From Amoebophrya sp. A120 (lineage: Eukaryota > Protista > Dinoflagellata): 64,000 bases of DNA. The notes beneath the pieces were generated by a model that was not told the origin of the DNA, searched no databases, and saw nothing but the letters and a program-made list of their open reading frames with translations. This document shows positions 1-63,844 of this stretch, piece by piece. Position 1 is the first letter of the stretch; every line of letters starts with the position of its first letter. The DNA is taken from the NCBI GenBank assembly GCA_905178155.1, contig CAJINV010000022.1, positions 565,799 through 629,798 of the forward strand. Direction: 5' to 3'. Both the position numbers and the translations under genes were made by a program.

Positions 1-3000
1 GATTGCCGGTGGAAATAATACGGAAGCACAAGAACCCGAGATTTTACTACCGTTGTCCGGTGCAGTGGGAGCGGCATCTAGCACCCCAAGCTCTTTATCG
101 TATATAAAAGTACACCCATACCATACCGGGGAACAAGTTGTATATGTCATGCAATTTTCAGAATAAAGACAAAAATGGAGCTCATGTTGTGTGATTTGAG
201 CGTGGCAAACTTTTGTTTATGTCCCCCTGAAGATCGGCTTCGCGTATTACAGAATCCGTTTTCATCTTGCATTCCAAAAAAGTGTACACCATAGTTGTCT
301 CTGCATGGCAGACTTTTTAGTTGTGACGCAAATTGCTTAGCGAAAGAAATAGATACTCTACCGGGCACAGCGCGCGTGGGTCTACATTTGTGTGTGATTC
401 CCTTTGCAGCCCGAGATCGGGATTGTCAATCCCAACAACCTCTGCTGGATGATCAGTTTGTCGCAGAGTTTGCTGTACATTCCCTCCTTGCACGAGAAGG
501 CCGAGGCGGAGTGCGCGCGGAGGGAGCAGGAGCAGCGAGGACCGGGTGCGAGTTCCAGTAGTAATTTTCAGCAACGCTCCCCGGAAGATAGCGACAAACT
601 CAGACAATGGTGCCAATTTTTCCGTGCCGTCGCTGGGTCGGGCGGTCGAGGACTATCAATTGCAAATATGTCTGGATCTGGAGGAATCCGAACTTTTGAT
701 GCTTCCTTCGGATTCTACAAAAATCTGTATTGCATGAACAGCAAGAGAGATCGAGTTTTTGCCACGGCGAGACGGCACTTCTCATGCAGGATAGGCATCA
801 GCAAGACCTCACAAAGTCTAGGATGCTAGGGCATCCATCACAGACATCTGGAGTCATGCAAAATGTGCATGACAAACGTTGCATTTTTCCTGACCAAAAC
901 ATATTTGCAGTTGATAAGGACGAAGCAACAACAATTTGTCTATTTACACCCGACAGCAAGGAGTAGAAGCGGTTCTACATTATGTTATGTGGAAGGCGAA
1001 TTGGCGCGAACTAAGGGACAGGAATTCTTGGAGACAGCAGGACCCGACGGAGGGGATGAGCAAACTGGTCGAAAATGTGCTACCTGGGAATTTCCAAAAC
1101 CTCTTCAACGTCGAAATCAAGGAGGAATTTTTCGCGATTGACCAGCAAGAGAACCCGATTCCGGACGAGAGCAAGGAAAAGAAAGACAATGCCGGCAATG
1201 CGTGGTTCCCCGCCTCCCAATTCATGATCGACTACAACGAGCAAAAACACACTGACATTCTCGGAGCTCTGCGAAACGCCTACTTCGAGCCTGATAAGGG
1301 AGATAGCAGCATATATTCTTACGACTATCAAAGGAAAGAAAATATTGGAATCAAGCAGGCGACAAAGCTTGCCTACAGAGCTCCGGCATACGTCGTAAAT
1401 GTTCTCTCAATTTGCTCCTGTGCCGGAGCAGAATCCTGCGCCGCACTGCATGACCATTGACTGCGCAATAAGTGTAGTTGACCGAACCAATTATAGTTGC
1501 TAATTGATATTGATTCTCAAAAATTTTGCCCCAATACTGCATTGGAACCCCACGACCCTCGGCCGGCCTGGTTGGAGGGTATGGAAATGCGGACGAAGCA
1601 GGTACCGGCGGAAGTTCAGATAATCACAGATAGCCAAGGACGAACACGAACGATTCAAGGCACCAGATATGGACTCCATCGGAAGGCCCACCTCCGGAAA
1701 CTGCCGGAAATTTTGCGGCTCGAGGTGAATCGTTTCACATACGAGAATAACGGAAGCACCCGCAAAAAGATGCATTATCTAGAGGCCCCCAGGCTTTTCT
1801 ACATCGACGGGGAGGCGAGCCGGAATGGTCCAAGTGGCATCCACACGGAGTTTCAGCGTGCGCGCTTGCGCAATCCGCACTGCCCCGGGGAGACAACAGC
1901 TTATACAGAGTGGGCAAGGCAAACTCGGAGACGGGGTATGGACCCCGTGTCCCAGTTGTACGAGCTACATGCGGTGATTTTGCACCACGGCCCCACCCCG
2001 AATTGCGGCCACTACACGGCTGTTGTGAACATCGGCACAGCCCAGCAATCTCCGCGGTGGCGACATTTCGACGACCAGCTGGTGACAGAAGTCCTGACGA
2101 CCTCCGTGGTAGGTCCTTCCGGTATTCTAGACAAATATCTGAGAGAACGAGCTGGGGAGGGCAAAACCATAAACATGCTGCTCTACAAGAAGAAGAAGCC
2201 CGACGCCGCATCGCCACCATATCAGGGCGCCGCACTGATCGGGCCTTCAGGGTCTGAAAATGGTGACCCGTTTGTCCCAATAACGCCCTCCTTAGCGACG
2301 TTGGCGCCGACTGCCTTGCCGGTAGATGCGAATACTTCGCAGCTACCGAGTGTAAGCTCAATCCGACCAGCAGACGCAAGTGAAATACGTCCCTCCTCGC
2401 CTGTTATTCGAACCGCATCGCCTCCATCAAGTAGCAGCAGTGGATCGACCGGGGCCGCAGGACCGGCAGCGTCTGCAAATGGGGGTGAGCATGACGAAGC
2501 AGAGGGATCTGCTGCAGTTCATCTCCAAGGAGCGCAACAGCCTTCTCGCCCGCTAGGAGGGGCAATGGCAAGTGGCGCATCAATACACGCGACAGGAGGG
2601 GAACTGGTAGTTGCAGCCCCGGATACTACGTTTGCGCCGGCGCAACCCGGCGTATTACTACAAACGCGGCAGGGTGACGCTGGAGCGGAAGCACGGACAC
2701 TACCGCCGCAGGGTGATGAGAATAGCGAACAGCAAATAGCCCAAGATAGCGCCGGTTCGTCTTCATCCGTGGGACAGGTAGTTGAACCGCCTGGCATTGT
2801 TGGCGCCACCGGCACAGCTGACGGCGGTCCACCGCCCGCATCAGCTGCTGACACATCAGAAACCGGCCCACCTGGAGCGCCGAAGCGCAGCCGCACTTCT
2901 TCGCCGGGCAGCAGCAGCGGCAGACAACAGCTAGAACCAAGTCCAGGAAGTGGTCCGAGGCAGAAGCGCACCTTGGAGTGGGGCGAGGCAGAAGACCACC

Positions 3001-3569
3001 TTGAGTGGGTAGGACCAGCACTAAATATCGTCAGTCCACTGACTGATGGAAGCAGAAGTACTGGGCCAGTGCCCGCGGTCCAACAAGCCCCGCAACTGCC
3101 CCCGGCAGAAGGTTCTACAACTTTACCCGACGCGCCACGTTTGGTACATTCACCTCCCACGAGCGGGAGAAGCGGAAACCCGGCTGGGGAGGCAAATCGT
3201 GGGCAGGCCCAGCCGCCAACAAGGGAAGTGTCCGCGGCCCCGGTTCCAGCCGCCGCTGAGCAAGCTGCTGGAGGGGAATCGGAAGTGAGAAACGCCGTCA
3301 CGGTTAGCTCTTCTGCAGCATTGGGTGGTCGTGCCTTCCCCGATGATGGTCTCTGTGACCTCGTGTCGGCGCAAGCCGATGTTCACTTTGTTCTCGGCGT
3401 TCACGGTCCAGAAGAAGACGGCATTCCTCGTGGGCCCTACTTCCCTGCTCCACGACGCTTCTTCACCGATGTCGGTGCGGTGTATCCTATCACGCGAAAA
3501 AGAACGGCTTTTGAATCCCATGCTAGTTTCAGGCAGAGTGCACGTGCAGGCAAAATGATGAGTCTGTGA
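1..3569 (+). CDS. Ubiquitin-specific protease (peptidase C19), multi-exon, 5' end outside window
   Basis: Cys box GIVNPNNLCWMISLSQSL (404 ORF), QQD box (936 ORF), His box YELHAVILHHG..GHYTA..WRHFDD (1497 ORF). Removing elements 96-399 and 654-916 (+1 direct repeat each) joins the frames. A probable AG acceptor lies at 1495-1496. Long low-complexity C-terminus; true 3' end uncertain. Confidence 0.85.
96..399. mobile_element. Degenerate TIR introner
   Basis: TATCG...TGATT ends, flanks CTCTT/CCCTT; removal joins SS-LQPEIG in frame. Confidence 0.6.
654..916. mobile_element. TIR introner family A
   Basis: TATCAATTGCAAATATGTCTGG...ACATATTTGCAGTTGATA, direct repeat AGGAC; removal joins ORF 404 to ORF 936. 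Confidence 0.9.
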
Positions 3570-12600: not shown

Positions 12601-15047
12601 AACAAACACCGAAGTTGTACGAGATGCAGGAGGTGCTTCGGGCGCCGCGAATCAGCAACTGAACTTTGGAGCGGGTTGGGGCAATGGTTTGTTTCCACGA
12701 CCTGCCGGAAACGGTATGGTTTTCGTCAAAAACGCGAATGATTTCGATGGTAATGAAACGACCAATACTGGTGGTAGTCCTGACGGAACATTAAACGGAA
12801 CGTCTAGTGGTCCTACAGAATCTCTGCAGCCCATACTACCGAACCCTCACACTGCGTTTTTGCCCCCGAGTCCGAGTGCTCTGAGCCCAGGAGTGGTGGT
12901 GTTCGGAGATGGAGGCGTAGGTGGCGGCGGAGATGGCGGGTTTGACGGTGGCGCTGGCGGTAGCGACGGTGGTGGTGGCCCGGCAACACGACCAAATACC
13001 CCCGTTGCCCCTCGTCCCGGTGGGAGTAATTATCCCACTGGAAATTATACCGGAGGTGGAACATCACCAGGCAGCTCTCCACCTCTCGTGCGTGGCAACC
13101 TGCCCGTCCCCGCAGCTGCCCCTGCAATGGTTGCTACGAGTTTAATATTGCCAGTAGGACCAAAAGCTGGCGCCGGCGGAATGATGCCACAGCCGAAACA
13201 ACGTCCAGCTCGTCCCACACCTTCCGTTCCGCCTTCCGCTCCAGCAGTTGTGCCGCCAGAAGTTAGCAGTACACCAGGAGACGGTCCGCGAGGAGTATCA
13301 CCGGCGGGCCAACCAGTCGTACCACCATTGCCCTATGACGGGTTGGTCACGGCGTCGTCGACGGGGAATACGACTAGCACCTCGCCGTCATCGCCAAGTA
13401 CCACGACGCTACCGACGGCTGCACAACGCCCTCCGAGTACTAGTACGCCGATGCAGTCAACAACCCAGAATGCTCCATTGCCAACAAGTACTCGAACTGC
13501 ATCGCCACCAAGAGGCGCGCAGGTGCAACAGGATCCACCGCCGGCATTTTTACCACAAGAGCTTGCTGCAAATGGAATAGCGAGTGAGCCGCCAAGACGA
13601 AGAGACCCAGAGGGAGTAGAGCGATCTGCCGTTCCTCAACCGACACGGGACGAAACTCTGACAGAGCCGAGTCGCAATGGAAATGGCCCGCCAGCCGGAG
13701 GAAGCACTGGCCCTAGTACCAATGCAGCCCTGCAAGAAGCGGACCCCCTGTGGCAGGGCGGCAACGAGGTGCGACCGGGAGGAGCCCCGGTCGGGACATC
13801 AGGGCCACAAGCTGAAGAGCGCCACACAGAAGTACCTCGCCAACTACTGGCGGCTCAGAATATCAGGAGCGGTACAACAGCACCGCCCCAGGTCGAAGCT
13901 CCGAGTTCAGCTCGAAGTCCGAGTGAGGGACGAGATTCCAATTCCCGTAGAACTACTGCGTTGGAGCAGCAGACGGTAGTAGAGCACGGCACTAATTCCC
14001 CACCGTCCACTATCCAAGAAAAAAACATTGTAGGTGTAACTTTTTTGGAGGAACAGCATTACAAATTTGTCTGGCATGACAGCAAAAACCTGTCATGCGC
14101 AGATAGTACGTGAAAACGCCCTTTATTGGACCCTACGACGCATGCCAAGCATGACAGACGCAATCATCTTGCAGGTTGCGCATCACAAATTTACACTAAC
14201 AACGTTTTTTGCTTGGATATCCACCAGCCAAGAACCCCCAGGAACTACAGCAAGAGGTCCTCCGCGCAGGCAGCTCACTATCAAATGCAAAAATGTCTGG
14301 GTCTGGAAGATTGCGAGATTTGTCATGCATATTTCGGATCACCATCACGCAAATGGCGTCTGATGCAGGCAAAAGCATCACAGGTTTTGAGCGCGCCTCG
14401 TGATGCCTGTCCCGCATGAGAAACTTCCTACTTGCGTGCCAAGAAATGGACAGCTTTTGGCGCTCATGCAACACAAATTTTTGTGTGTTCCAGAGTTTGC
14501 ATCACAAGTTCCAACCCTTCCAGACCCAGACACTTTTACATTTGATACTCACCTTGGCTCCGCAAAGTTTCGCCGTGCAGGTCGACCCGAATTCTGATAA
14601 TTCGCAGGCGGGCACAGTCTATCCTGAGTAAAAACGTACCCACACCAGAGTTGTAATGCAGATTTGCAAAGACAGGAAGATTTGTAATGCGCATCCCCGC
14701 CATGAGAGCCATTTCCAATCGTGTTTTGGAATTTGTGATGCTGTGAACAGGATGAGCAGATGAATCTGTGATGCGGCTGCACTTGCTAACCTGCACTACA
14801 CTGCATAGCGCAACTTGTCATGCGTGACTCACAAAGCTCCTAGGTTTGTGTTGCAAAATCCCCATCCTGACTCTGGTGTGGGTACGTTTTTGCTCAGGAT
14901 ACAGTCTCCACTGCGTTTATCGAGCCATCAGGCCCAACATCTCCAAGGTCGGCTTGTTCCTTCGCAGCCCCGCCGCGGCCGACTGTTGAAAGTGCTGGTA
15001 ACCGGCGCCGTGTGCTGACAGTGAGTTTACGCCATGAGCAAATATAG
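9661..15047 (+). CDS. Mps1/TTK-like protein kinase with a transmembrane helix and P/T/S/G-rich tail, multi-exon
   Basis: Spliced model gives GELLGRGGFAEVYK, ALK, HFDLKPANFL, DFG, GTILYMAPE, DIWSLG, CL.R..ERIT. Hydrophobic VLISALILSIGIGAAVSIGIFG at about 12536-12601. Six introners removed in frame. A possible GT donor at 15021 may extend the gene. Confidence 0.85.
10089..10315. mobile_element. TIR introner family D (diverged)
   Basis: TAT...ATA ends, flanks TCCAA/TCCAT; frame restored. Confidence 0.75.
10371..10532. mobile_element. TIR introner family B in kinase G-loop
   Basis: Flanks CTTCG/CTTTG; removal restores GRGGF-AEVYK. Confidence 0.85.
11324..11478. mobile_element. TIR introner family B
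   Basis: TATCCTGTGCAAAAGTATCGTACTC...CTTTTGCAATCCATA; flanks GATCC/AATCC; joins to ORF 11567. Confidence 0.9.
14011..14219. mobile_element. TIR introner family D
   Basis: TATCCAAGAAAAAA...TTTTTTGCTTGGATA; perfect TCCAC repeat. Confidence 0.9.
14279..14547. mobile_element. TIR introner family A
   Basis: About 31-bp TIR TATCAAATGCAAAAATGTCTGGGTCTGGAAG; perfect CTCAC repeat. Confidence 0.95.
14620..14901. mobile_element. TIR introner family C
   Basis: TIR TATCCTGAGTAAAAACGTACCCACACCAGAGT; perfect CAGTC repeat. Confidence 0.95.
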
Positions 15048-18663: not shown

Positions 18664-18669
18664 AATTTG

Positions 18670-19038
18670 TGTTGATCGTGTGATCTTGACCTCCCGAACA
18701 CACTCCTTCTTCTTCTTCTTACGGGAAACAAAACGCGTCCTTTCCTGATTGTGTTTGCTCAAAACCTTGAGCCAACGGCTCAAACGAAAATTGTTGTTGT
18801 ACATGTTTCAGCATGAGAGATTCGCTCTCCACCCGGTTCCAGGGTCTATCTAATGTTCTCTCTCAAAGAAAGAAGAGTGCGAATAAACTTTTCCCCAAAA
18901 ACGAATACGAAAGATATTGGAAAAACGATGGATGCGACTAGTCGTGAAAAAACAGATACCGACTAGCGACGACCACGATAAGCGAAAAAACAAGCTCTTG
19001 ACCGATGAGAGATAGGTGTGAACACATTGTGAACAACA
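18670..19038 (-). repeat. Copia 3' LTR
   Basis: Direct repeat of 24592-24960. Confidence 0.97.
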
Positions 19039-19050
19039 CCCCTCCTCAAA
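19039..19050 (-). other. Copia polypurine tract
   Basis: Minus strand TTTGAGGAGGGG abuts the 3' LTR. Confidence 0.85.
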
Positions 19051-19199
19051 CTAGCCGAAGGACCTGCTTTTTGCAAATTTAAAGCTTGGAAAATGGCTGG
19101 TCGTGCTAGTTTGCTATTTAGTGGCGTTTTTCTTCTACTAACTCAACTATCTGTATGCTGACCTGTATGCATGCTATGACTTTTACTCGATTTTATGCG

Positions 19200-22100: not shown

Positions 22101-22619
22101 GCGGCAGTGGTCTTCAAAGCTATATGTCAAGCATGAGTACTCCTCCTTACTAGTATTTTTGTGGAATATTACGTAAAAGAGACCGTTCGTAAATCTGTGT
22201 ATAGCGATGCTCTTCCTCTCCTGGCCGGGAAGGAAGAGCTGCGCAAGGTCTGCGCTGAAAAGAAATCCTTTCGCCAGCAAAATGCTGACAGCGAGGATGT
22301 TAAAAGGTATGCAATCGTTGAAGATTGCCCTGCTGATATTGATCAACAAGTTGTTATTTGCAAGTGGCTTGGGTTTGCATATTGGCGCCTTGACTGGCTC
22401 GCCGAATATGCCCCGTACCGATGTAACTTGGTCCCTGTAAATCGTATCTACTAGTGTGCTGTCTTGGAGCATGTGTGACGTGGCCCCCGTGTCGAGTAGC
22501 CATATGGAAAAATTTGCATTGGATAATGTATCGACTGTTTCAACCATACTATAAATGTTGTCCATTCTAGAAAAAATTTTTGCTGTTTCGGGCGCAACCC
22601 GCATGAAGTTGTCTGACAT
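19200..22619 (-). CDS. pol: Copia Pol (protease, integrase, RT, RNase H)
   Basis: WLLDTGATSHM; H..H..CQSC; DLCGP..SDNGGEF..NGGAE; DISNAY..YVDD; DADW..KHIDIRY. Confidence 0.95.
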   Translation of the reverse strand: MSDNFMRVAPETAKIFSRMDNIYSMVETVDTLSNANFSIWLLDTGATSHMLQDSTLVDTIYRDQVTSVRGIFGEPVKAPICKPKPLANNNLLINISRAIFNDCIPFNILAVSILLAKGFLFSADLAQLFLPGQERKSIAIHRFTNGLFYVIFHKNTSKEEYSCLTYSFEDHCRSAHILPYRGFCQSCTISRAAKAPHRAGPRDDQYEGRLTFNDEISTDLCGPILPESMHGHKFAMTIADKKTRLPEVAPLRRKADSVNGLRLWIAKHTAPRRLKSDNGGEFISERFRAECRANRIVQIFTSYYSSPMNGGAEVLNKLALAGTRTLIADSGLPKKLWCYAIKHYVFCLSIMPRKCLHGSNSHREAYGEDFDTAKLLRFGEEVFYNTKPQGKLEDRRSPGRFLGFADHSLDVAVYDEKLDKVLPRVRDFVRKNSTGRRPIAPVSRVRNKVTFAEQIACRTYVPGAAPRKFVTTTDEQLQEGTRNSDRHFPKEGKRAPVATSSDTAAINSSCDRDQNSSQPKPAQHSRPEIQTTLDAVFLSIPTPKTVRHNNAGAALSYISFEDESYLLRNQARDQDTQDCTTEELLAYLQVECPEVEFTMQSVQDLCFLADKICIRQALQSANATHWSKCIQVERDGLEAKNFAIPLPEPEWAKIPKKDILPLRLILSRKEDGRFKCRCVVLGNRQHGADAYFSPVARFSTLRILLSLAARKKWDIDQYDISNAYVNAPLTEPVYVSPPPQWRTKPGEVWKLQRALYGLKESGFRWYEYFRDFLSSHGWRQNKVEPCLFDRNGVYLLLYVDDLLLFGRQDAIDAEVSEILQNFACKRIKPTTDEKGISHRMYLGLHIHQNKKKGTIKITQETLIDKILSEFDMQNCMPVRTPSTDLRSIDIDKDDTNAPTKVNSSNYRKLVGMCMYLAVASRYDIGYAVKELGKFSDKNTKREHIAAARLIRYLKGTREFALTFRGAQPLEIKACTHTPDAEEIIGFSDADWGNSEDRRSTSGILVFYGGDLVFWQSITQKSVSLSSCEAEYYAISECGREILYYRNFISSLAESAKIPDVKKCPTVIFEDNKSCIDLVEQSDSTRKTKHIDIRYNFIKDLHKRKEVKVVHVQTKYQYADILTKSLPIKVHNFLISMINP

Positions 22620-24589: not shown

Positions 24590-24591
24590 TC

Positions 24592-49493: not shown

Positions 49494-50144
49494 TGTGTAT
49501 ATGATTCTTAATGGTTAAGCACGAACTGCCTCTCCACGCAATACAAATCCACTGGTTCAGAATTTTACCGATCTATTTTTCCGATCCTGTTTTACAAATG
49601 TATGATGTTCTTTCTTGGGGAAGTAGGGATCTCATTTTTATCGTATTATCAAATCTGTAATGCAAGTGGCTTTTCTGCTCGCAAATGCCCGATCAAGATG
49701 CTCTTCCGTCGGTGGTAAATCCTGTATGATTTCTAAATGGTTTTTTTTGGATCTTCGTGTATGATTCTCATGGTGTTCAGCCGGTCGCAAGCACTATGGC
49801 ATTTACCAATCGCTTTTCGTGGTCGCGCATTACAAATTCGCACTGTATAATTGTCGCTCTTTCTTTAACTCAATCGTCAAGGCGTCGGAGGGTAAAAATA
49901 GCATTACAAATCGTATTTCGTACTAAATTATAGGAGTAGAATCCGCATTACATCGTGGGGAAACATCGTTTTGGTGCATTACAAATTGGTAGGACATAAA
50001 GACCGATAGGAAACACGGAAACTAACGCACGAACATCGGGGAAAGAAATAAACTGTCGCGAAACCGCACCTGATTGCGGTCTATTTGGATTATTTGGGAT
50101 AATATTTGTGTTCTAACCTCTCCATTTTGAAACTAGATCCTTCA
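49494..50144 (+). repeat. Gypsy 5' LTR
   Basis: Direct repeat at offset 10418; right end inferred from CA followed by the PBS. Confidence 0.85.
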
Positions 50145-50146
50145 AT

Positions 50147-50164: not shown

Positions 50165-50407
50165 ATAATTCGACTAGCTGCTTACGATTTACGGCGTAAA
50201 ATTTGCTATACATTATTTACGGTTTGGGGATTATCGATTATCTATTTTACGAGTTTGCAATGCACTATTTACGGTTCTTGGGGTTCTATCACTACTAATT
50301 TTTATCGGGGAAGTAACTTACTGCAAGATATTTTTACTGGTTTCGCTCGGGTTACAGCTTTCTTTGCGTAAATTTAGTCGCGCTGCAATCAGATTGACAA
50401 AAATATT

Positions 50408-53400
50408 ATGTTCTTCGGCCGAACACGAAACTACGAACAACAACGACAAGAAGACACCGACTGGGATTCGCCGGCATCCTTGCCATTAATTTCGGGCTTC
50501 CGCTCTTGCAATCGCGCGGTGCAGCAGCAACCACAAGGGGACCGAACACAGCAACTACAGGAATTTTGGGAACGGGTTAAAACCATTCGCACTAAGCGCC
50601 GGGGGAAAATGGACGACGATATTCCGCATCGGGGTGCACCAACCCCGATGTCACCACTGAGCGCAGTCTCGCTAACGGAGCAAATTATGGCGGAAGTCAG
50701 TACGGCGACGGCTACGCAGCCCAGCGGAGGAAGCACAAACGCCGACCCACCGGCCGCGGCAACTATCACTACTACTCCTACTGCTACCACCAGCGGAGCA
50801 ACGGAAACGGGTGGAACAACCACTACTACTACTGGCATAGCAACTACTACCACGACTACTGGAACAACAACTACCACTACGGGAACAGCTGAGGGAGCGC
50901 GCGACGGAGGAACAACTTCAGGGGAACAGGCGAAAAGCTTCGCGACCCAGGTCATTCGGGGCCTAGTAGTAATGGTAGTCCAGCTGCTATTTTGGGTCAT
51001 TGAACTGGTGGTGACGGTCATCTTCGCCTGCGGGAAAGAAATCTGCGTTCGCACAGCAGGCCTGGCATTCAGCGGAGGAAAATGCGTGATCAACTGGGGA
51101 AAAGAAATTCGGATTAGCGCGGCGGGAATGAAAGCCGATGTTGGCCACACGAGCACAACGCCGGCCCCTGCCGTTACCCCGCCCTTAGTAACCGCCACAA
51201 GAACTTCTACGCCGCCGACTCCAGTCGCCGCCACGCCACCAACCACTACTGCTTCCGGCCAATTGGATAGTAAAAAGCTTATTTTCCTTGGGGTAGAGCC
51301 CACGTCCACCACGTCTCCCGACTCGGTCAGCGGACAGATACTTTACAAAGACTTGAAATTGGCCGGGCTTACAAAAATGCAAGTCTTCGCCCTCCGCACA
51401 CTGGTCCGCAAAGTAGTGAAGGAAAAGTTTGGCCACCGGGTCGACATGATTTTCTCGGAGGGTTCTATCATTGTGGATTGGGCTGCTATTCCGGGCGTCG
51501 ACGACAAGGCAGACAAAACGGATTATGCAAAACCACAACTACCCCGTCTTTCATTCCGGGCGAAAACGCAGAGGGAGGCTGTTTTGGAGATCATCAATTC
51601 CCGCTTTCACCTGCAGACGGTGACACAGCAAAAGCAGTCCTGGCAGACCCTCGATGCAACTGGGACGGCTTTGGCGATTCGAAACAGGATGCAGACGCAG
51701 CTTGCTATCCACCCGTCGGAAGCGTCAGAAGAGTTTTTTGGTGCTGTTCTTTCGGAATTCGTTGAGCAACTCGAAGCCGCATGGGGAATCAACGATCAAC
51801 AGCGGATTACTATCCTACAAGAAATCCTTGACGAGGTCAGCTTCGTGGCAAGAAATGCGCGAGAAGTTGGGTCGAGTTTAATCAGCTTTGTTGCTGGTTA
51901 TCAAGCTGCATTCGGAATGCTCATGTCGGAAAGGGAAAGAACGGGAAATACGTTTTTCCAGCTCACGGCTGAAGTCGGTGCCGATACCGAGCGGAAGCAG
52001 TTTGTGGAAAAACTCAAGTACCGCACTAGCCTGCCGATTTGGGCCCGGACCAAGTTAGACGACTACTTTGGGGACCGTGCTGAACCTGTCGCCGCCCAGT
52101 CTTTACAAAAAGTGCTTGACCGCTTGGCACTGTTGGCGCAGTCGGAACAGTCCAAGAGCAACGCCGACGGCACTGCAAACCCCGGCCAACCGAGTAACTT
52201 CAGCGCGACGCAAACAGCACTGCAGGAGCAACAGCAATACTTGAACCGCGCGGCAGGAGGGCGGCTGCAACCACAAGCAGGCGCGTCGCTGGGTACGGGG
52301 ATGTGCAACGGCAACCACCGCCGGATCCACCACTTCCTTTTCAATCGCCGGGTCGCTGCTGCAGAAAAACAGCTTGGTAGGGGACTGCAAGTGGGATTAT
52401 GTGGGTATTGCAAAAACCACCACAAGGTCGCCGAGCCTGGGGGCGCAATCCTTTGCCCTGATAAAATTTGTGCTGATTCAGATGCAGCTTCGGGTGGGCG
52501 CCCGAACCACCTCCGTTGTGACTTGCATTGCAAGCCCTACGAGTACCTCCCGCATATGACGGCTTATCCGGGTACCCAACAGCAAAATACTAACAGCGCC
52601 GCACCATTTCAGCATCAACAGCAGCAGAGACAGAATTTCTCACAGCAGCAGCAACAACAGCAATTTCGTCCTGGTCCGAATCCGTTCATGCAGAAACCAG
52701 CTCAACAGCAGCAGCAACAATGCTCTCGTCACCAGCAACAGCAGTCCGTCAACGTGGAACAAACTCTTTTGGGCGCAGGATGGAGTGCTGGCACCGGGGG
52801 AAGACAGCAGTCGCAATTCGGAGTGGTCCGGTCAGTCACTGCAACTTCTCTTCCGAGCAGTGAAGGAGAAAGTCCCGGGTTCATGCAAATGGATATTTGT
52901 CATGCATTTTCACAGTCCGCTCCGACAAACAGCAGTGAAAATGTGAAAGACATTTTCGCGCAGTGCGGATGGGTCCCGAAACACGACGATCAGGGGACGA
53001 GGGCAATTTACGGACTCAGGATGTGTAATGCGGGGACGCAAACCTACTGCGCATTTTCTTCGACGAATTCCGACGCGGTTTACTTAAATACTTCGGCGGA
53101 CGAGTTGGAGCGATATTTGGGTGGGGAAGAAATTTCGAAGGAACACATGTGGAGCGCCGAACCGGCCGGGTCTGTTCCGCCTCTATCTCTTGTCGCGAAA
53201 GTCAGCTTGATGTACACAAAATCCAAGGGCTACAATTTTATGGTTCGGAATTCAGGGACGGGATTTTTTGCTGCAAACCTTCCTTTCGACCTGGTGACGT
53301 CGGTCGTCGACGAGACCACGGGCACGGAGTACATTAACGAAGGAGTGCGGGCACACGCGGCGAGCTACTTCAAGAAAACGGAACCGAGCAAAGCACCCCG

Positions 53401-53830
53401 GCCCCGGGGCGTAGTTACCATTGCCGGAAAACAGTACGAAGCTATGCTTGACAGCGCGTGCTGTGTTGGCCCGTGGGATGGTGGTAACAACATGATCAGC
53501 GCGAAGCTTTTGCGGGAATTGAAGAAAAACGCGCCGCAAGTCTTACGGAACCAACAGACCGACGGGGTGGACATTGTGCAGCTGGGGGCGCGCAATCACC
53601 TCGTGCACTACGAGCGGAAACTGGTGGAAATCGAAATTGTTTTTCGCAGCGCCGATGGTACCGAGGAGAAGAAACTGTGGCTGCCTTTCGCGATCGTGGA
53701 TTGGCTTTGCGAAGGGGACGATGTAATTATCGGGCTGCAGACCTTTGAAGAACGACTTGGAGTGGTGTTTATGGGGTCGAAGGTGAAGCTGGAGAAGCTT
53801 GGAATTTGTATTCCTCGCTCTCTATCGTGA
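50408..53830 (+). CDS. gag: Gypsy Gag-protease ORF
   Basis: 1140 aa; Thr-rich tracts, hydrophobic segment, Cys/His cluster, poly-Q, C-terminal aspartic protease AMLDSA..DVIIG. Confidence 0.85.
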   Translation: MFFGRTRNYEQQRQEDTDWDSPASLPLISGFRSCNRAVQQQPQGDRTQQLQEFWERVKTIRTKRRGKMDDDIPHRGAPTPMSPLSAVSLTEQIMAEVSTATATQPSGGSTNADPPAAATITTTPTATTSGATETGGTTTTTTGIATTTTTTGTTTTTTGTAEGARDGGTTSGEQAKSFATQVIRGLVVMVVQLLFWVIELVVTVIFACGKEICVRTAGLAFSGGKCVINWGKEIRISAAGMKADVGHTSTTPAPAVTPPLVTATRTSTPPTPVAATPPTTTASGQLDSKKLIFLGVEPTSTTSPDSVSGQILYKDLKLAGLTKMQVFALRTLVRKVVKEKFGHRVDMIFSEGSIIVDWAAIPGVDDKADKTDYAKPQLPRLSFRAKTQREAVLEIINSRFHLQTVTQQKQSWQTLDATGTALAIRNRMQTQLAIHPSEASEEFFGAVLSEFVEQLEAAWGINDQQRITILQEILDEVSFVARNAREVGSSLISFVAGYQAAFGMLMSERERTGNTFFQLTAEVGADTERKQFVEKLKYRTSLPIWARTKLDDYFGDRAEPVAAQSLQKVLDRLALLAQSEQSKSNADGTANPGQPSNFSATQTALQEQQQYLNRAAGGRLQPQAGASLGTGMCNGNHRRIHHFLFNRRVAAAEKQLGRGLQVGLCGYCKNHHKVAEPGGAILCPDKICADSDAASGGRPNHLRCDLHCKPYEYLPHMTAYPGTQQQNTNSAAPFQHQQQQRQNFSQQQQQQQFRPGPNPFMQKPAQQQQQQCSRHQQQQSVNVEQTLLGAGWSAGTGGRQQSQFGVVRSVTATSLPSSEGESPGFMQMDICHAFSQSAPTNSSENVKDIFAQCGWVPKHDDQGTRAIYGLRMCNAGTQTYCAFSSTNSDAVYLNTSADELERYLGGEEISKEHMWSAEPAGSVPPLSLVAKVSLMYTKSKGYNFMVRNSGTGFFAANLPFDLVTSVVDETTGTEYINEGVRAHAASYFKKTEPSKAPRPRGVVTIAGKQYEAMLDSACCVGPWDGGNNMISAKLLRELKKNAPQVLRNQQTDGVDIVQLGARNHLVHYERKLVEIEIVFRSADGTEEKKLWLPFAIVDWLCEGDDVIIGLQTFEERLGVVFMGSKVKLEKLGICIPRSLS

Positions 53831-56800
53831 CTATCTTTTGAAGACAAAAATTTAGAAAGTTGCAAAACAGGGCTTGCAGCCGGTTTGAAGGGTTTCGCAC
53901 GGTGTACGGCCTCAAACTGCAACACAGCCGCGCGAAAATCAAAACGGAAAAACGAAGGCGAGAAACGGGTCAGATTTTTGCTACCAGGGGAAGCGATTTA
54001 CTTTGAAGTTGGGGAGTACGAAAAACAAGAACTACCGATGGAATTCAAGACCGGACTACGAAAATACCTGTATGATGAAGATAAGAACTACGAAAAGAAC
54101 TCTCCAGCAACAGTACTACAGAACAAGGTCGAAAAAGCGCTACAAATTAAAGCAAAGAATTGGGAACAAGAAGAACGAAAAACAAAGAAGACAGTCCAGA
54201 TTTCGAGCCTTCCGGATGATCGCGAGTTTATTCCGGGCGGGAGTTTTCTTCTCGATCCGACAGCAGTTGGGAACAAGCCGATCCGAAATCCAACTTTTAA
54301 TGCTGGACTATCTAACAGTGAGAACGAAAGACGCAATCTGTTATGCGGGAAACAAGATCTATGGAGCAGCTTTGAAAAGGGAATGGAAATTAACAATCAC
54401 GAACAAGCACTGACAACCAGCACTGAGGAATTAGAATTTTTTCCGCGAGAACGGGAACAAGACGGTGAAGGAATTGCTACACCGGTGACAGAAGAATTTG
54501 AAGACGAGAGTAAAGAAGTAAATTTTTCCGGGGTCCGCAATTTCGAGATGGGGGAAGACGATTTTCAGGTGGGGTTTTCCGGTTTGGGTGGACCTCCCCA
54601 TGAGGTGGACCCAAACAGCAGTACCGCCCTGGAAGGAAAATATCGAATGTGTATGATGAAAGAGGAAGAAGAACTTGACGAACGGAAAGAAGAACTTGAA
54701 GAAGAAGAAGAAGATGCTGCGCTGTCCTGTCCCGACCACCCCAGCAGCGGGAATAGTGAACTACAAAAAGAAATAAAATTGTGTACGATGCAGCAAACAG
54801 TACGAATCCCGAGCGAAGACGAAGTTTGTATCCGGGTGCATTTAGACGAAGAGAAATTTGAACGCAACAAGGTTTACAACCTTCAGGGCCGAGGGGGTGG
54901 AGCGCTTCCGGGATTTGTCATCGAGCCATCAGTGATCGTTCTGACCATGGAAACCGCCTGTATGCCAATCGTTTTACGGGTTTCGCACAGTAGCAGAACT
55001 TCAAGGAAGTTGGGGGTCGCAAGTTTTGTCGTCCGCGAACACTCCGATCGGCCTATCTCAAAGCAGGAAATTGACAGTGCAGTTTTGGGACTATCAATTT
55101 TACCACGCGGGCCGGAGCTCTCGAAAACTTTGTATTGCAATCTTGCAAGAGCTGTGGGGGACGACGGAAATTCAGAACAAGACACTACGAGCCGGGGGCG
55201 CAGTTTCAGTAAAATTCGATCAAGGTTCCACGGAGCCAAGTACAAAAACGAAGAGAACAAGTACAAAGACTTCGAGGAGGAAAAGAAACTTCTGGAAGAA
55301 GAAATTGCGGATAAGAAGTCGAAGTGGAAAGCCGGGGGCGATAAACTTTTACGAACAAGCCAGGAGTGGAAGGACAGGGTCAGAAAAGCACAGGAAGAAA
55401 AATTAGTGGATTTGCCGGAGCCGCTGCGGACACAGATGATCGAGCTGGTGGTGGAAAATGCGGAGCACTTGCATGACGATGGGGCGGAGTTTCCGCAGCT
55501 AAAAGGGATTCTCGCTCGCCACGTCATCAAACCGAACCCGCAGTGGAAAGCAATTCAGCCGTACAAAACCAACCCGCTGGACGAAATACGGACAAAATTT
55601 TTGCTGGAAGAGCATATTTTTGAAAACAAAATCCGGCCGCTCGACCTGAGTAAAGAGCAACCCCCGCCACACACCTCGCCAACACTGGTCGCAGACAGGA
55701 AAAATCATCGGACGCGCCGGCTGGTAGTGGACTACCGATTTTACAACCAACAAGTCGAGGATCAAGCCACAGTAATGCCGCGGGCAGATGATATTTTCAA
55801 AAAGTTGATCCACGGAAACCCGAAGTGGTTCGTCGTTTTGGATTTGTCGATGGGCTATAATCAGATGCTGCTAAGTCCATGCACAGCGCCTTACCTTAGT
55901 TGGTCGACGAAAAGCGGAATTTTTATTCCGGTGCGACTCCCGTTGGGTCCAAAATGGGCACCAGCACTATTCCAGTCTCATACTCAAAATGTTTTTGGGT
56001 TTCTGGAATGGTTGTCGGTGTTCATTGACGACCTGACGCACAACGCAAAGGACGACGAAGAACTGCTACAGCGGGTGGCGGAGTTGTTCAAAAGGTGCAA
56101 GGAAAGTGGGTTTTGCCTGTCTCTTCGGAAGTCAGTCTTTGGGGCGTCTAGTGTCGAAGTTTTGGGATTCGAAATCGACAGAAACGGAAGAACAGTTTGC
56201 GCGAAGAAGAGAAAAGTTTTGCAAATGTGGCCCCTTCCCACTAATTCCGAAGCTTTGAAGTCTCTGTTGTGTTTCAGCAACTACTTACGCGAATTTATTC
56301 CGAGGTTCCCGGACTTGGCTCATGTTCTCCGACCCTACTCCGAAAAGCAAAAAAGGTGGTCTGGGTTTGCACAGGACGCTGAAGCGCAAGACGCACTCGA
56401 AAAGTTGAAGCATGCCCTGGATGCACATGTTTATCTTGTGAGCATCGATGTGGAGGCAGCACGAGCTTGGAGAACGTCGGGGCGGCCAATAGAAGTTTTC
56501 ATCGACGCATCGGACATTGCGTGCTCCTTCGTCGTTACGCAGCGACCAGCACCGCACCAGAAGCCACAACCGGTCTACTTCCAGTCCAAAACCTGGAACC
56601 CGACAGAACGCAGCTGGAGTACGATGGAGAAAGAAATCTTCGCCATGCACTACTGGTGCCTGGAAGGTGCAGATGAGGTTTCTCGCTATGAATATTTGTT
56701 GTACTTCGACCACAAGAACGAAGGTCCGCATGAGATGGCATCTTTGTGGGCTAACACGCGGGTGAGCTCCAAGGTTCGCCGATGGATTTCTGAAATCATG

Positions 56801-59800
56801 GAACGGCTGGGGTCGTGTTACAGAATATTTTTGGCTGGGGAGTGGAACGTCGTTGCCGATGCACTAAGCCGAACTTGGTGGGGACAGCAAGACGCCGACG
56901 CAGAAGAAGTTGCGAACTCCGTGGGGATTCCAAAATATGTGTCCGACTTCATCGAGTTTTTGTTCGACGCCAAGAAGCCAGAAATCGGAAAACAGCATGA
57001 CAAACGGGATTTGGAAGTAGCAACAAAAGTCAGTAGTATGGTTTCCTGCCCTGTTTCACAGCTGATTTTCAACATGTTTGAAAATCCCAACCGATTACGG
57101 GGTCAATTTTTCTTGCAGTTCATGAGCCGTTTTCCGGTTTACGGGTTTCTCCAGTTGCAAAGCAAGTTTTTGCCCGCGATCAGTCACAAACACGCATTGG
57201 AAATTAAGTGCTACAGCACCGACACCAGAGGAAAGGCATGGCATATCGAGGCTAAATGCAAAGTGCAAAAATATAGCTGGAGCAACCTGGTCCGGTTACG
57301 AAAAGCGGACAACGACGACAGACAAGCCCGGTACGATGTTGCGCGCAGTTTCCGGCAGTGGTTGATGACCCTGACACCAAAAGCGGGACACGCTGAAGAA
57401 TTCCGGTGCTACACGGTGCTACCAGATGTTTTTTCGGAATACCGAGGTGACTACGAAATGGATTCGATTAGCAGGACGATTTTGAACTACAATCCGAGTA
57501 CCATGGCGATTCAGTGGCCAGAAGTAGTCTGTCCAAATCCGGTGAAATTAGACACGCTTGCAGTTGGGGGCGAGAGTCACTCCTTCCTCGACGGAGTATA
57601 CAAGTGTAACTGCAAGACGCCTCTAATTCCAGCGCTACTACAAGCTGCGGAACAAGATCAGGACTTTGAAAACCACGAACCACGACCGGACAACAGTGGA
57701 GAAGAATTTGCAGGGGAAGAAGAAGAGTTTTTATTTGCAGCGGACGACGAGGAGTTTTTCCCAGACCCACTCGAAGAACTTTTTGGAGAACCAGCTGAAC
57801 CGGTACAACATGCAGTGCTGGTCGCTGAAGATCCCGCTCGACAAGAGAACGAGATGGAGCTTGAAGCTTCCGATGGCGAACCAGTGGAAGATGAGGAAGA
57901 CGATCTACTACAGGACGCACCGCAAGCAGTACCGGTGGCACACAAAAGTCAACAACAGCAGAAAGCAAAAGCGGGAGAGCAAATACGAAAATTTGCTTGG
58001 GTCGTGTTGAAAGGAGAAGAACCAAAATTGGAACAGTTCGATGCGGGAAAACTTTACAGCGAAATTTGGCACGACGAAAGGAAAACGGGCAAGGCACAGC
58101 ACCTAAAGTGGGTCGCTGCTACTGGGGTCGATCTTCTTGGGGGTGCCGACTTGGTTTGGGATGCTTCCTGGGGTACGCTAAGAGTAGTCCTATTTTTTCG
58201 GGCTAAAGCGAAGAACACCTTTCGCATCCTTTTCGGCCGACCAATCGAAATTTTAGTTGAGGTTGCAGGCAGCTCCGCACAACTTCCCGAAGATATTCGC
58301 AGCAACAGTAAGTACCTGGGGGCGCTGCTGATTGGGAAGAAAAGACTTTTCCAGGAAATAGCAACGGTGGAAATTAGTGTTGCAAGATTGGAACTCGCCC
58401 GGGAACAACGAGGAGATGAACACTACGGGCCAATCTGTCATGCGGTTTCAGCAAAAGACGAGCATGAGGATGATGGGGATTTGGAGTGGTTTGATATTCT
58501 CCTTCGAGAGATGAAGCTACCGCGGAAAGAAGCAAAGAAACTAGCACGCAGACTCCGCATGGGAGATTTCCGATTTGATGATGATGGAGTTTTGGTGCAG
58601 AATGTAGAGGGGGTTTGGTGTACTTGTGTTCCAACTACATTTCAGCTGCATCTACTTCAGGAATCGCATGACAAACACCATGGAACAGTTAGTGCTACTC
58701 TTTCTCGGCTCCGTAATGAAAATCTTTGGTGGGTGGGGATTGAAGCGATGGCGGAAGAGTATTGCGATGTGCGATGCTTAGTATGTGGAATCGAACGGGC
58801 AAAGCAAAGGACCGACGCTTTTTATTTTGCCGACCGGGTTACGCACTTCGGTGAGATTTTCTTCATCGACCACCACGGACCCTACGAACAAAGCCGGCTT
58901 GGAAATAAATACTTGCTGACAGTAGTCGACGCAGCGACGGGCTATGGGTGGATATTTCCGGTTGCCAACACTAGTCTACCTCTTGTTGTTGCGCATTTGA
59001 AAACAGTTTTTCACGACCAGGGGCACTGTACTGCCATTCGCTGCGATAACGGATTTGGAACTCAGAAGGGAGTACTGGGAAAATTTCTGAAGTCGAAGAA
59101 GATTAAGTTTCGACCTGGGTCACGCGAAAATCCACGGGGACAGTGGCCAATCGAATTTCCGCACAAAGATATGAGATGCTTCATCGCTACGAAAATGCGT
59201 TTCATGTCGAAAAAGAATACTTGGGATTTGTATGCTTCGGAACTTCAATGGTTTTGGCGAACTCTTGAACGACCAGCATGGGGAAACAAAAGCGCCCACG
59301 AATTCCGATTCAACGAAAAGCCACGCATGGAGCTGAGTACGGTAGCGAAACGGGTAGAGGAAATTTTTGACGACAACGAGGATGGCCTCGACGTTCTGGA
59401 TTTTAAGACCCGCCAGAAAAACGAAGTTCTTCTACGCCACCGATACCGCCGGGAAAACACTTTTACGCAGAACGACGAGCGGGTCGCGTTGAACAACAAC
59501 ACGCTCTTCCGCGTTGGGGATATCGTCTACTATCACAATATCCGGGCTGAGATTCGGAGGAAGGATATTTTGAGTGGGCTGAACCATGCTGCTTTGTTTA
59601 TGATCAAGCAGGTCATATCTCCTACCACGATGTACTTAGTAGACTGGCGGGACAGCATCGAGCAAATTTCTTTCGTGCAGCCTGTGCACCGAAAAAATTT
59701 GTCATCGACTGGTCTTCGCGTCGAGAACTTCGTCGTGGATTTGAATCGGCAGCACTACTGTGAAGCCGAAAAGTGCAATTATTTTGTCGTGCATTATGAC

Positions 59801-59929
59801 GCTTTTCGCTTACGTTATTTTTATCAAGTAGGAGGAGAAAATTTGTACTGTAGTCGTAAGTTTTTAGAGGACAAAATCAGTGGACTTCGTCAGTTCGTGC
59901 TGGGGGCGGTTTGTGTATATGATTCTTAA
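53831..59929 (+). CDS. pol: Gypsy Pol (RT, RNase H, integrase), same frame as gag-PR after one TGA
   Basis: RLVVDYR, LDLSMGYNQ, VFIDD; IDAS..EKE..DH..ADALSR; H..H..CLVC, FIDHHGP..CDNG..E; the ORF ends 18 nt inside the 3' LTR. Confidence 0.93.
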   Translation, partial: LSFEDKNLESCKTGLAAGLKGFARCTASNCNTAARKSKRKNEGEKRVRFLLPGEAIYFEVGEYEKQELPMEFKTGLRKYLYDEDKNYEKNSPATVLQNKVEKALQIKAKNWEQEERKTKKTVQISSLPDDREFIPGGSFLLDPTAVGNKPIRNPTFNAGLSNSENERRNLLCGKQDLWSSFEKGMEINNHEQALTTSTEELEFFPREREQDGEGIATPVTEEFEDESKEVNFSGVRNFEMGEDDFQVGFSGLGGPPHEVDPNSSTALEGKYRMCMMKEEEELDERKEELEEEEEDAALSCPDHPSSGNSELQKEIKLCTMQQTVRIPSEDEVCIRVHLDEEKFERNKVYNLQGRGGGALPGFVIEPSVIVLTMETACMPIVLRVSHSSRTSRKLGVASFVVREHSDRPISKQEIDSAVLGLSILPRGPELSKTLYCNLARAVGDDGNSEQDTTSRGRSFSKIRSRFHGAKYKNEENKYKDFEEEKKLLEEEIADKKSKWKAGGDKLLRTSQEWKDRVRKAQEEKLVDLPEPLRTQMIELVVENAEHLHDDGAEFPQLKGILARHVIKPNPQWKAIQPYKTNPLDEIRTKFLLEEHIFENKIRPLDLSKEQPPPHTSPTLVADRKNHRTRRLVVDYRFYNQQVEDQATVMPRADDIFKKLIHGNPKWFVVLDLSMGYNQMLLSPCTAPYLSWSTKSGIFIPVRLPLGPKWAPALFQSHTQNVFGFLEWLSVFIDDLTHNAKDDEELLQRVAELFKRCKESGFCLSLRKSVFGASSVEVLGFEIDRNGRTVCAKKRKVLQMWPLPTNSEALKSLLCFSNYLREFIPRFPDLAHVLRPYSEKQKRWSGFAQDAEAQDALEKLKHALDAHVYLVSIDVEAARAWRTSGRPIEVFIDASDIACSFVVTQRPAPHQKPQPVYFQSKTWNPTERSWSTMEKEIFAMHYWCLEGADEVSRYEYLLYFDHKNEGPHEMASLWANTRVSSKVRRWISEIMERLGSCYRIFLAGEWNVVADALSRTWWGQQDADAEEVANSVGIPKYVSDFIEFLFDAKKPEIGKQHDKRDLEVATKVSSMVSCPVSQLIFNMFENPNRLRGQFFLQFMSRFPVYGFLQLQSKFLPAISHKHALEIKCYSTDTRGKAWHIEAKCKVQKYSWSNLVRLRKADNDDRQARYDVARSFRQWLMTLTPKAGHAEEFRCYTVLPDVFSEYRGDYEMDSISRTILNYNPSTMAIQWPEVVCPNPVKLDTLAVGGESHSFLDGVYKCNCKTPLIPALLQAAEQDQDFENHEPRPDNSGEEFAGEEEEFLFAADDEEFFPDPLEELFGEPAEPVQHAVLVAEDPARQENEMELEASDGEPVEDEEDDLLQDAPQAVPVAHKSQQQQKAKAGEQIRKFAWVVLKGEEPKLEQFDAGKLYSEIWHDERKTGKAQHLKWVAATGVDLLGGADLVWDASWGTLRVVLFFRAKAKNTFRILFGRPIEILVEVAGSSAQLPEDIRSNSKYLGALLIGKKRLFQEIATVEISVARLELAREQRGDEHYGPICHAVSAKDEHEDDGDLEWFDILLREMKLPRKEAKKLARRLRMGDFRFDDDGVLVQNVEGVWCTCVPTTFQLHLLQESHDKHHGTVSATLSRLRNENLWWVGIEAMAEEYCDVRCLVCGIERAKQRTDAFYFADRVTHFGEIFFIDHHGPYEQSRLGNKYLLTVVDAATGYGWIFPVANTSLPLVVAHLKTVFHDQGHCTAIRCDNGFGTQKGVLGKFLKSKKIKFRPGSRENPRGQWPIEFPHKDMRCFIATKMRFMSKKNTWDLYASELQWFWRTLERPAWGNKSAHEFRFNEKPRMELSTVAKRVEEIFDDNEDGLDVLDFKTRQKNEVLLRHRYRRENTFTQNDERVALNNNTLFRVGDIVYYHNIRAEIRRKDILSGLNHAALFMIKQVISPTTMYLVDWRDSIEQISFVQPVHRKNLSSTGLRVENFVVDLNRQHYCEAEKCNYFVVHYDAFRLRYFYQVGGENLYCSRKFLEDKISGLRQFVLGAVCVYDS

Positions 59930-61975: not shown

Positions 61976-63844
61976 TTGCAGCTGCTTGACTCCTCCCAAT
62001 TTTCCCACGATTCTGCAGTGGACGATGACGACCCTCGGCCGACCTGGTTGGACGGTGTGGAGACGCGGACCAGGCAGGTGCATTATGCTGTGCAAAAGTA
62101 TCGTACTCTTATTGCAATCATGCATTACAAATCTTTTCGTTATAGGGAAATCCGCATTACAAATTTTAGTTCTCATGCTGAGAAAATTTGTAATGCATTT
62201 ATACGAGTACGATACTTTTGCAGTTCATATGCATGCGCAGCGGACAATCCGAGATAGCACAGGACAACCTCGGACTATTCGCTACACCGAGTACGGCCTG
62301 CACCGCAAAGTTTACCTCCGCAAACTGCCCGAAATTTTGCCGCTCCACGTGAACCGCTTCACATACCAGACTGACGGAACAAGCATCACCAGGAAAAAAA
62401 TGCAGTATCTGGACATTCCCTTTCTATTCTACATCGACGCCCAGGCGAGAAGAAATGGTGGTCAAAGCGGCATCAACACGGAGTTTGAACGTATCAACTG
62501 TAAAAATGTCTGGGTCTGGAAGATTCTGACACTTGTCATGCACGTTTTGCATGAGCCCTGATGTCTGTGATACATGCCCTAGCATCACAGATTTTTTGAG
62601 AGCTTCCTGTTGCCTATTCCGCATGACAAATGCCCTCTCCGCGTAGCAAAAATTACGTTCCTTTTGGTACTCATGCAATACAGATTTTTCTGGAATGCAA
62701 ATGCAGCATCACAAGTTGCAATCTTCCAGACCCAGACACTTTTGCACTTGATAGAACGTGCGCGAGTGCGAAATCCCAAATCCCCTGAGGACGCACGCGA
62801 CTACAGAGATATCAAATGCAAAAATGTCTGGGTCTGGAAAATTGCCAGGTTTGTCATGCATATTTTGAATGACCCATGATGTCTGTGATGCATGCCCTAG
62901 CATCACAGATTTTTAGAGGACTTTGCGATGCCTCCACCGCATGAGAAATGCCCTCTCCACGTAGCACAAACTAGAGTCCTTTTGCTGGTCATGCAATACA
63001 AATTCTTCTAGAATCCAGAGACAGCATTACAAGTTTAGAATCTTCCAGACCCAGACATTTTTACGTTTGATAAGAGAGTGGGAAAGGCAAGTGCAGGAAC
63101 GGGGCATGGAAGCTGTGTCGCAGGCGTACGAATATCCTCTGCAAAAGTATCGCACTCGTATAAATGCGAATCTTGCATTACAAATCTTTTTATCAAGGCA
63201 AATCCGCATGACACATTCCATTTCTCATGCTAAGGAAATCTGTATTGCAATTAATACTAGTACGACACTTTTGCAATGCATAACGAACTGCATGCGGTGA
63301 TTTTGCACCACGGTCCAAGGGCCAATGCCGGCCACTACACGGCGGTTGTGAACATCGGTACGCAGCAATCTCCGCAGTGGCGACATTTCGACGACGGGCG
63401 TGTGATAGTCATCCCGACTACTACTGGCTCTTTGTATCAAATGCAAATATTTGCTTGGGTGTCGAAGAAGATTGCAAGGCTTGTATTATTCAAGTTTTCC
63501 ATGCCCAATGAGGTTGAGGTCTGGAAAAATGCGGGGCGTAGCATGACAGATTCTGTGCGGTCTTTCTATTTGTCATGCCTGTTCTGCATGACAAACTCCT
63601 TCTAACCTTGAGCAAAATTAATAGGGCAACTCTTAGGTGTCATGCACAGGATGCATCACAAGTTAGCGCCGTTTTTTGTTTATTTCCAGACCCAGACAAA
63701 TGCGCAGTGCATACTTTGAGCGGATACCTGAAAGAACGAAACGCGGAGGGAAAGACTGTGTGCATGCTTCTGTACAAAAAGCCCAGGCATAGCACTGGTT
63801 TCGTGCTCTCTGGGCCAAAACGGGTCGCACAGCAGCGACGGTGA
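61976..63844 (+). CDS. USP paralogue, C-terminal part, with 5 introners
   Basis: Spliced model colinear with ORF 1497 (DPRPTWLDG, YGLHRKVYLRKLPEIL, YELHAVILHHG..GHYTA..WRHFDD, MLLYKK); ends GFVLSGPKRVAQQRR*. Confidence 0.85.
62084..62229. mobile_element. TIR introner family B
   Basis: Perfect TGCAT repeat; empty site in the first USP. Confidence 0.95.
62492..62753. mobile_element. TIR introner family A
   Basis: Perfect GAACG repeat; empty site in the first USP. Confidence 0.95.
62810..63072. mobile_element. TIR introner family A
   Basis: Perfect AGAGA repeat; empty site in the first USP. Confidence 0.95.
63133..63282. mobile_element. TIR introner family B
   Basis: Perfect ACGAA repeat; restores YE-LHAVILH. 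Confidence 0.95.
63435..63713. mobile_element. TIR introner family A
   Basis: Perfect CTTTG repeat; frame restored. Confidence 0.9.

Follow-up and report, generated by a model that had tools for sequence, protein, structure and literature searches.

The window analysed here, 64 kb of forward-strand DNA from Amoebophrya sp. A120 (contig CAJINV010000022.1, positions 565,799 to 629,798), is gene-dense eukaryotic DNA whose genes, among them a ubiquitin hydrolase, a kinase and an AAA-domain protein, are interrupted by elements of 110-350 bp with TAT..ATA ends and 5-bp duplications. Judged by their TAT-N7-AAA ends and family lengths, these elements fit the published signature of A120 introners. Such introners were described as non-canonical introns whose ends begin with TAT, followed by seven loose bases and AAA, with short direct repeats of 3-5 nt (Farhat et al. 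2021, PMC7789003). The A120 family lengths reported by Gozashti et al. (2025, PMC12130899), which among 22 of the 58 A120 rows include 106, 148-149, 160-165, 208, 214-227, 252-261, 278, 305 and 319-322, match the 109-323 bp families of this analysis; most of those 22 rows are labelled “TIR DNA, Unknown” (TIR, terminal inverted repeat).

Inside the elements, and in the long terminal repeat (LTR) of a Gypsy retrotransposon in the same window, a short word, GCAT(G/T/C)ACAAA, recurs in both orientations. An earlier note, made from the letters of the window, had read it as a common host or transposase binding site, a splicing enhancer or a chromatin-organising word. Our analysis points to a motif that is real, selected and, as far as we searched, not described before. 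Introners were already known, and the internal motif and its phasing appear to be the new part: neither is described in the passages and supplements covered of the two A120 introner papers, PMC7789003 and PMC12130899, and literature and supplement searches, which took in neither supplementary files 13 and 14 of PMC12130899 nor the figures, returned no report of the motif.

The data set combines the window with a related assembly. A pattern scan of metagenome contigs gave at least 160 stretches from at least 149 loci, all of one related assembly, which after dereplication came to 611,356 bp and is biased to loci with F0 ends. Together they hold 489 elements, in 15 families of 3-194 copies (consensus lengths 109-323 bp) and 56 singletons. 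The inverted repeat TAT-N7-AAA stands at both element ends, in a detection that itself looked for TAT/TTA ends, and an exact 5-bp duplication flanks 343 of the 489 elements, with one at 4 bp and none at 6 bp, in a detection that gave preference to matches over 5 bp. TAT and AAA, the fixed parts of the ends, stand one helical turn apart. The description of the families as having different TIRs thus needs qualifying, because one end signature and the 5-bp duplication are common to them and several are distantly related. The elements used below are listed by their position in the window.

62084..62229: introner of family F1 (about 150 bp); sites 62122+, 62154+, 62169-, 62187-; TIR 21/24, flank duplication
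62492..62753: introner of family F0 (about 262 bp); sites 62532-, 62582+, 62621+, 62675+, 62706+; holds a 31-bp pair
62810..63072: introner F0; six sites, with 32-bp and 31-bp pairs
63133..63282: introner F1; five sites, one within the TIR
654..916: introner F0 in reverse orientation; five sites
14011..14219: introner F2 (about 210 bp); six sites
14620..14901: introner F4; six sites, spaced 31, 51, 33, 49 and 31, each on the minus strand
34668..34952: introner F4 in opposite orientation; missing from a probable RNA contig
26360..30837, plus strand: AAA-domain gene, presumably replication-factor-C-like (RFC) by its peptide motifs; holds twelve TIR elements in both orientations
30394..30640: element with F0-type TIRs (22/24) and a motif-free interior; stops in all three frames
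32584..32762: F1-type element, decayed, with a single site in its interior; in record 2 of run X2 it is removed along with one 5-bp duplication
33266..33518: introner F0; in the same record it is likewise removed along with one 5-bp duplication
38414..38735: introner F3 (about 322 bp); six sites, the outermost 54 and 43 bp from the ends
37829..38148: introner F9 (about 305-320 bp); seven sites

Removal of elements from RNA was followed in run X2, which counts as probable RNA on a software guess alone. Its record 2 joins 32581|32766 and 33260|33519 and has 162 nt between 34286 and 35271, which amounts to exactly six elements removed with 5 bp each, and in this probable RNA contig the element ends coincide with splice boundaries. 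A contig of run X5 retains 32584-32762 in place. In the interior of 30394-30640, X5 contigs carry other letters, which suggests a few related copies (depth gives no copy number).

Abundance, spacing and conservation of the word

The exact word occurs 73 times in the window over both strands, with 35 G, 28 T, 10 C and no A at letter 5; three of these copies are a duplicate count from the second, identical Gypsy LTR. An order-3 Markov model predicts about 1.3 (0.57 + 0.33 + 0.43). The word first noticed is therefore real, yet the true motif is wider: iterative refinement led to GCA(T/A)(G/C/T)ACA(A/G)(A/G)T, which at 9 bits or more has 256 window sites, compared with 25-53 in 30 Markov simulations. 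The coordinates given for it earlier prove right within 1 bp (62122+, 62154+, 62187-, 62621+, 49827+, 49901+, 49976+, 22881- and 52896-). Across the window and the related assembly, exact-word density per kb is 4.9 in elements, 0.51 in other DNA and 0.083 in open reading frames (ORFs). That all element families carry the motif holds for the introner consensuses, every one of which (15/15) has at least two interior sites; it does not hold copy by copy or element by element, since the exact word is present in 320 of the 451 elements from outside the window, is missing at 30394-30640, and the Copia ORFs are at background.

The spacing of the sites follows the DNA helix. Same-strand pairs in the window have a period peak at 10.5 bp (R 0.43, n=175, the copies not being independent). 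With each family counted once, a same-strand pair 30-33 bp apart is present in 14 of the 15 families, against a null mean of 2.4 and a maximum of 9 in 5000, and the spacers of the 31-bp pairs have no visible alignment between different families. The outermost outward-pointing site lies 31-33, 39-43 or 51-54 bp from the element end, with one exception (59), and this end phasing (R=0.76, n=13 families, p=1.6e-4) persists when related families are merged (R=0.67, n=14, permutation p=0.006). In the related families F5, F7 and F12 the outermost site is found at 32, 42 and 52 bp, and at F0-type ends the first site is at 32 bp in 40 ends and at 39-41 bp in 183, the other positions from 30 to 38 accounting for 5 ends. 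Number, order and strand of the copies vary between families and the spacing is kept; as several families share ancestry, this geometry need not have arisen many times.

Substitution rates were taken from trees of the 10 largest families, pooled, and expressed relative to other interior columns, with sites called on the consensus. Core positions 1, 2, 3 and 8 change at 0.33 of that rate on terminal branches (235 vs 705 expected) and at 0.11 on internal branches (39 vs 351 expected), whereas position 5 drifts freely among G, C and T (1.06 terminal, 1.08 internal) and avoids A (G 697, C 432, T 346 and A 14 over 1489 sites). As a control for context, the C of GCA has a rate of 0.17/0.11 inside motifs and 0.97/1.05 outside them (terminal/internal), and same-context bases outside motifs range over 0.78-1.12. 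Core columns are more conserved than the remaining interior columns in 15 of 15 families. The earlier note had named its own refuting outcome, namely a frequency explained by composition or a decay at the rate of the flanking sequence; with cores at 0.11-0.33 of the neighbouring rate, the finding is not refuted. Such a conservation pattern marks a recognised site; composition or passive descent does not account for it. Mutation bias as its cause is ruled out by the same-context controls near 1, with the caveat of a few slow GCAT columns outside called motifs.

The word in retroelements and host DNA

Two retroelements in the window bear on the reach of the motif.

49494..50145, plus strand: 5' LTR of the Gypsy element, 652 bp; sites 49538+, 49654-, 49827+, 49901+, 49976+, plus a weak site at position 452 of the LTR
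59912-60563: second Gypsy LTR, an identical copy
50378..59929, plus strand: Gypsy gag-like and pol ORFs; 17 sites of at least 9 bits, including 52896-, 56995+, 58434- and 58666+; pol with Pfam RVT_1, RT_RNaseH and rve
18670..24960, minus strand: Copia element; identical 369-bp LTRs, 5-bp duplication; exact site at 22881 and a variant in each LTR (18811, 24733)

The cluster noticed earlier in the Gypsy LTR stands (p about 0.003 or less): its five strong sites compare with 0.06 expected from the LTR's own composition, at p=7e-6 against clean non-coding background and p=0.003 against all non-element DNA, and steps of 74 and 75 bp between sites correspond to seven turns. Capture of an introner piece was considered as its origin and ruled out, because there is no introner homology beyond the word; LTR and introners share only motif-centred matches of 19-25 bp. 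The Gypsy ORFs, enriched 2-3 fold, have 17 sites vs 7.1 after synonymous shuffling, and host ORFs, enriched 1.5-2 fold, have 83 vs 57, both above 40 of 40 permuted matrices; host ORF controls were masked for elements, and ORF 11480-14113 was unsuited, with an introner at its end. The copies once described as “ICHA” codons do lie in frame, in gag at 52895 and in pol at 58433, though the latter is the variant GCATGACAGA and not the word as first given. The Copia spacer site exists (22881-); set against the non-coding rate of this genome, neither it (p about 0.06) nor the Copia LTR site (p about 0.14) reaches significance.

Masked non-coding DNA holds 111 strong sites vs 16-24 expected, of which 51 are isolated and 60 clustered; the clustered ones look like unrecognised or decayed elements. 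A chromatin-organising word, one of the roles first suggested, is therefore only weakly possible: beyond the elements the word is in excess by 1.5-2 fold in ORFs and by about 5 fold in non-coding DNA, and much of the latter excess comes from decayed elements. A viral-sequence scan for the 31-bp pair gave 33 single hits, with 2-8 motif copies per locus and no arrays, and viral scans for the Gypsy reverse transcriptase and an F1 end gave no match.

Several side observations concern the retroelements. Diverged LTR contigs have no listed change at 49654-49663 amid 10 nearby substitutions, in a table that omits contig ends and is too small to count. After the 3' LTR, 60564-61591 repeats 50146-51173 (leader and gag start) and ends at the sole N of the window; the X5 depth, which is single-copy-like (43.9) across most of the original stretch and roughly twice as high on the LTR, makes an assembly artefact the probable explanation. 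One X2 contig spans the 3' portion of pol (57421-59900) and continues into the LTR. The Gypsy primer-binding site, 50147-50163, is presumably complementary to the 3' end of tRNA-Ala. A weak likeness to the Copia LTR (local score 38 only) at 40540-40860, round a divergent motif pair 17 bp apart (40738-, 40755+), is possibly an old solo LTR.

A protein-binding site in double-stranded DNA

Taken together, these data make the motif very probably a selected DNA-binding site. At a probability of roughly 0.5, we read GCA(T/A)(G/C/T)ACA(A/G)(A/G) as a double-stranded DNA site bound by a single, probably host-encoded protein whose role would be to help assemble the mobilisation complex of short introners. 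The candidate protein would occupy copies lying on the same side of the helix, aligned in register with a transposase at the TAT-N7-AAA end, and once bound could help bend or bridge 110-320 bp of DNA, so that lineages retaining the motif array would amplify. In line with such amplification, elements with close relatives have more intact copies: motif count rises with nearest-neighbour identity (rho 0.28 in F0, 0.55 in F1). IHF is a host bending cofactor of this kind in bacterial transposons. That the protein would be a host factor is suggested more weakly, the reasons being that the word is present in the Gypsy LTR and ORFs, which have no introner homology, and that a slight excess is seen in host ORFs. 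The binding site proposed in the earlier note thus survives as a selected, helically phased site in double-stranded DNA, its binder being more probably a host protein than the transposase. A bolder form, in which one sequence-specific host protein reads the word in introners and the LTR retrotransposon and, held in helical phase with the element ends, licenses transposition and marks non-GT-AG intron ends on DNA in a lineage where U1 small nuclear RNA (snRNA) was not found, strikes us as doubtful.

A number of observations weigh against the host-cofactor reading. On conservation, slow rates (0.43) extend to nine GCAT columns that lie outside called motifs, and the rise of motif count with nearest-neighbour identity may reflect ordinary ageing. 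The families are not all independent, since with motifs deleted F7-F12 (z 9.1), F4-F9 (8.2) and F4-F5 (6.0) still align. As for geometry, the F0 step is 7-9 bp, short of a full turn; 22 singleton elements lack significant phasing (p=0.34), and the same goes for inward-pointing sites (p=0.58) and for sites beyond the elements (p=0.14); a 15.9-bp period (0.57) fits same-strand family pairs slightly better than 10.5 (0.48); and a helically phased element length, considered as a further feature, was rejected as not significant (p=0.33). The evidence for “host” comes from one Gypsy element, whose ORF excess over that of host ORFs is marginal (p 0.02-0.04), and Copia is not clearly enriched. Finally, a scan of 95 of the 264 ORFs returned no transposase or integrase domain, an IS3-like DDE transposase included.

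Possible, and clearly less probable, is that the motif is a subterminal repeat bound by the transposase itself, with one lineage reading TAT-N7-AAA plus motif and the LTR and ORF copies being secondary. This would accommodate all conservation and end-phasing data, the ends and 5-bp duplication common to all families and the relatedness of several of them, and PMC12130899 describes a TIR-flanked A120 family with LTR-retrotransposon-related ORFs. It also has precedents in Muta1 (PMC5499845), the BED sites of Hermes (PMC10368747) and the Emigrant miniature inverted-repeat element with Lemi1 (PMC1636448), which likewise have short repeated words inside their ends, bound by the element's own transposase; Hermes words stand in either orientation, and in Muta1 more copies give more binding and excision. 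Like such subterminal repeats, the word here is repeated near both ends and conserved in active lineages. Unlike them, it is not confined to a cognate family: it is common to families whose inner TIRs differ, holds to a 31-bp spacing, and is also over-represented in the LTR and ORFs of Gypsy and, weakly, in host ORFs. A transposase-bound repeat leaves that ORF excess unexplained, as it does the five strong sites in a 652-bp LTR without introner homology, and PMC7789003 reported no transposase in A120.

Other known systems offer partial likenesses. Sleeping Beauty with HMGB1 (PMC7827188) would be comparable, by analogy, in that a host protein aids synapsis; Sleeping Beauty needs about 300 bp between TIRs, whereas most elements here are shorter, and HMGB1 is recruited by the transposase and not by a 10-bp word. 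The IS3EU/GingerRoot superfamily (PMC10045372), with integrase-related transposases, has the TA..TA termini of the elements here and usually a 6-bp duplication, in contrast to the 5 bp found here (0/489 at 6). The middle of an animal enhancer's Sox/Oct composite element, CATTGTCATGCAAAT (PMC5314778), reads like the reverse strand TTTGT(C/G/A)ATGC and, compared by sequence, is a look-alike only.

It is unlikely that the motif serves mainly after insertion, with a DNA-bound host protein marking introners so that introns are defined during transcription or kept tolerable in chromatin. Element ends are splice boundaries, and U1 snRNA was not found in these genomes (PMC7789003), both of which would suit such a role. 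In the same direction, among columns fixed on internal branches, the terminal-branch rate of motif cores (0.28) is below that of inner-TIR columns (0.50), and in older copies the core rate rises little (0.27 to 0.31) compared with the inner-TIR rate (0.47 to 0.59). Terminal branches include unsampled active lineages, however, so a low rate there need not be post-insertion, and no duplicated insertion sites were found that could give a clean post-insertion rate. Against this role, the single-site element 32584-32762 was removed in X2, and the motif-free 30394-30640 is probably spliced too, given its stops in all frames within the RFC-like gene.

That the motif acts at the RNA level, by enhancing splicing or by forming the paired arms of an intron hairpin, seems very improbable. 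Some motif copies pair with one another, on both strands, in the predicted folds of 13 of 15 family consensuses (none in F14), and hairpins were proposed in PMC7789003. With gene direction taken from nearby long ORFs, however, insertion orientation relative to transcription is unbiased (F0 42/42, F1 18/24, F4 5/6), and F4, which thus inserts both ways, has every motif copy on one strand of its consensus, as has F14. Left-right covariation of motifs gave no positive signal in four of the five families examined (F0, F3, F5 and F7; the F0 match at position 5 is 0.27 vs 0.43 expected); F6 alone is positive, at one position (0.64 vs 0.37, n=14). The 10.5-bp phasing moreover suits B-form DNA. The lack of orientation bias and of covariation argues against an RNA splicing enhancer, and the removal of a single-site element in the probable RNA contig, along with the probable splicing of a motif-free one, makes a single-stranded enhancer unlikely; the splicing role first suggested does not hold in that form. 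Within the TIRs, variable positions 4-9 match between left and right at chance level in the F0, F1, F3 and F4 alignments, and selection for a perfect RNA hairpin would not be expected to leave that pattern; F0 TIR position 14 covaries between ends (0.76 vs 0.50).

Common descent, composition or mutation bias can be set aside almost entirely: shared ancestry of some families and the slow GCAT columns speak for them, and they are refuted in the main by the branch rates and the context-matched controls near 1, by a free position 5 next to fixed neighbours, and by copy number, order and strand that differ between families while spacing is kept.

Consequences and other features of the window

PMC7789003 names two open questions: by what means A120-type introners, for which no transposase is known, move, and how splicing deals with their non-canonical ends. 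A universal, conserved and phased word makes the question of mobilisation testable, for it offers a bait: a 31-bp pair, with a mutant of the core as control, could pull out the candidate protein, and the word could be used to search the genome for autonomous partner elements. The motif shows that introners need more than TIRs and hints at a factor common to DNA transposons and a retrotransposon.

Five longer TIR-bounded elements with 5-bp duplications were found (L019:505-1608, L026:632-1465, L054:571-1051, L055:3862-4492 and L028:10305-10761); their middles resemble captured foreign DNA, in the manner of Pack-type transposons, and motif copies there are few or absent. The raw RNA reads of X9 and X10 (2026), 20 and 4 partial ones, match only parts of F0 elements, at 90-99%, and not exons, which suggests another strain or species with related introners; no X9 read fell on the Gypsy element. 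GC-rich, repeat-laden stretches at 41200-42100 and 46300-48200 are without long ORFs or motif arrays, and a 255-bp tandem pair lies at 47676-48185. Genes with their upstream regions are duplicated within the window at 35460-36900, 42078-43560 and 48320-48900, and also at 918-3569 and 61962-63790, with 85-94% identity for the first pair; the paralogues hold different introners, and the insertions therefore postdate the duplication.

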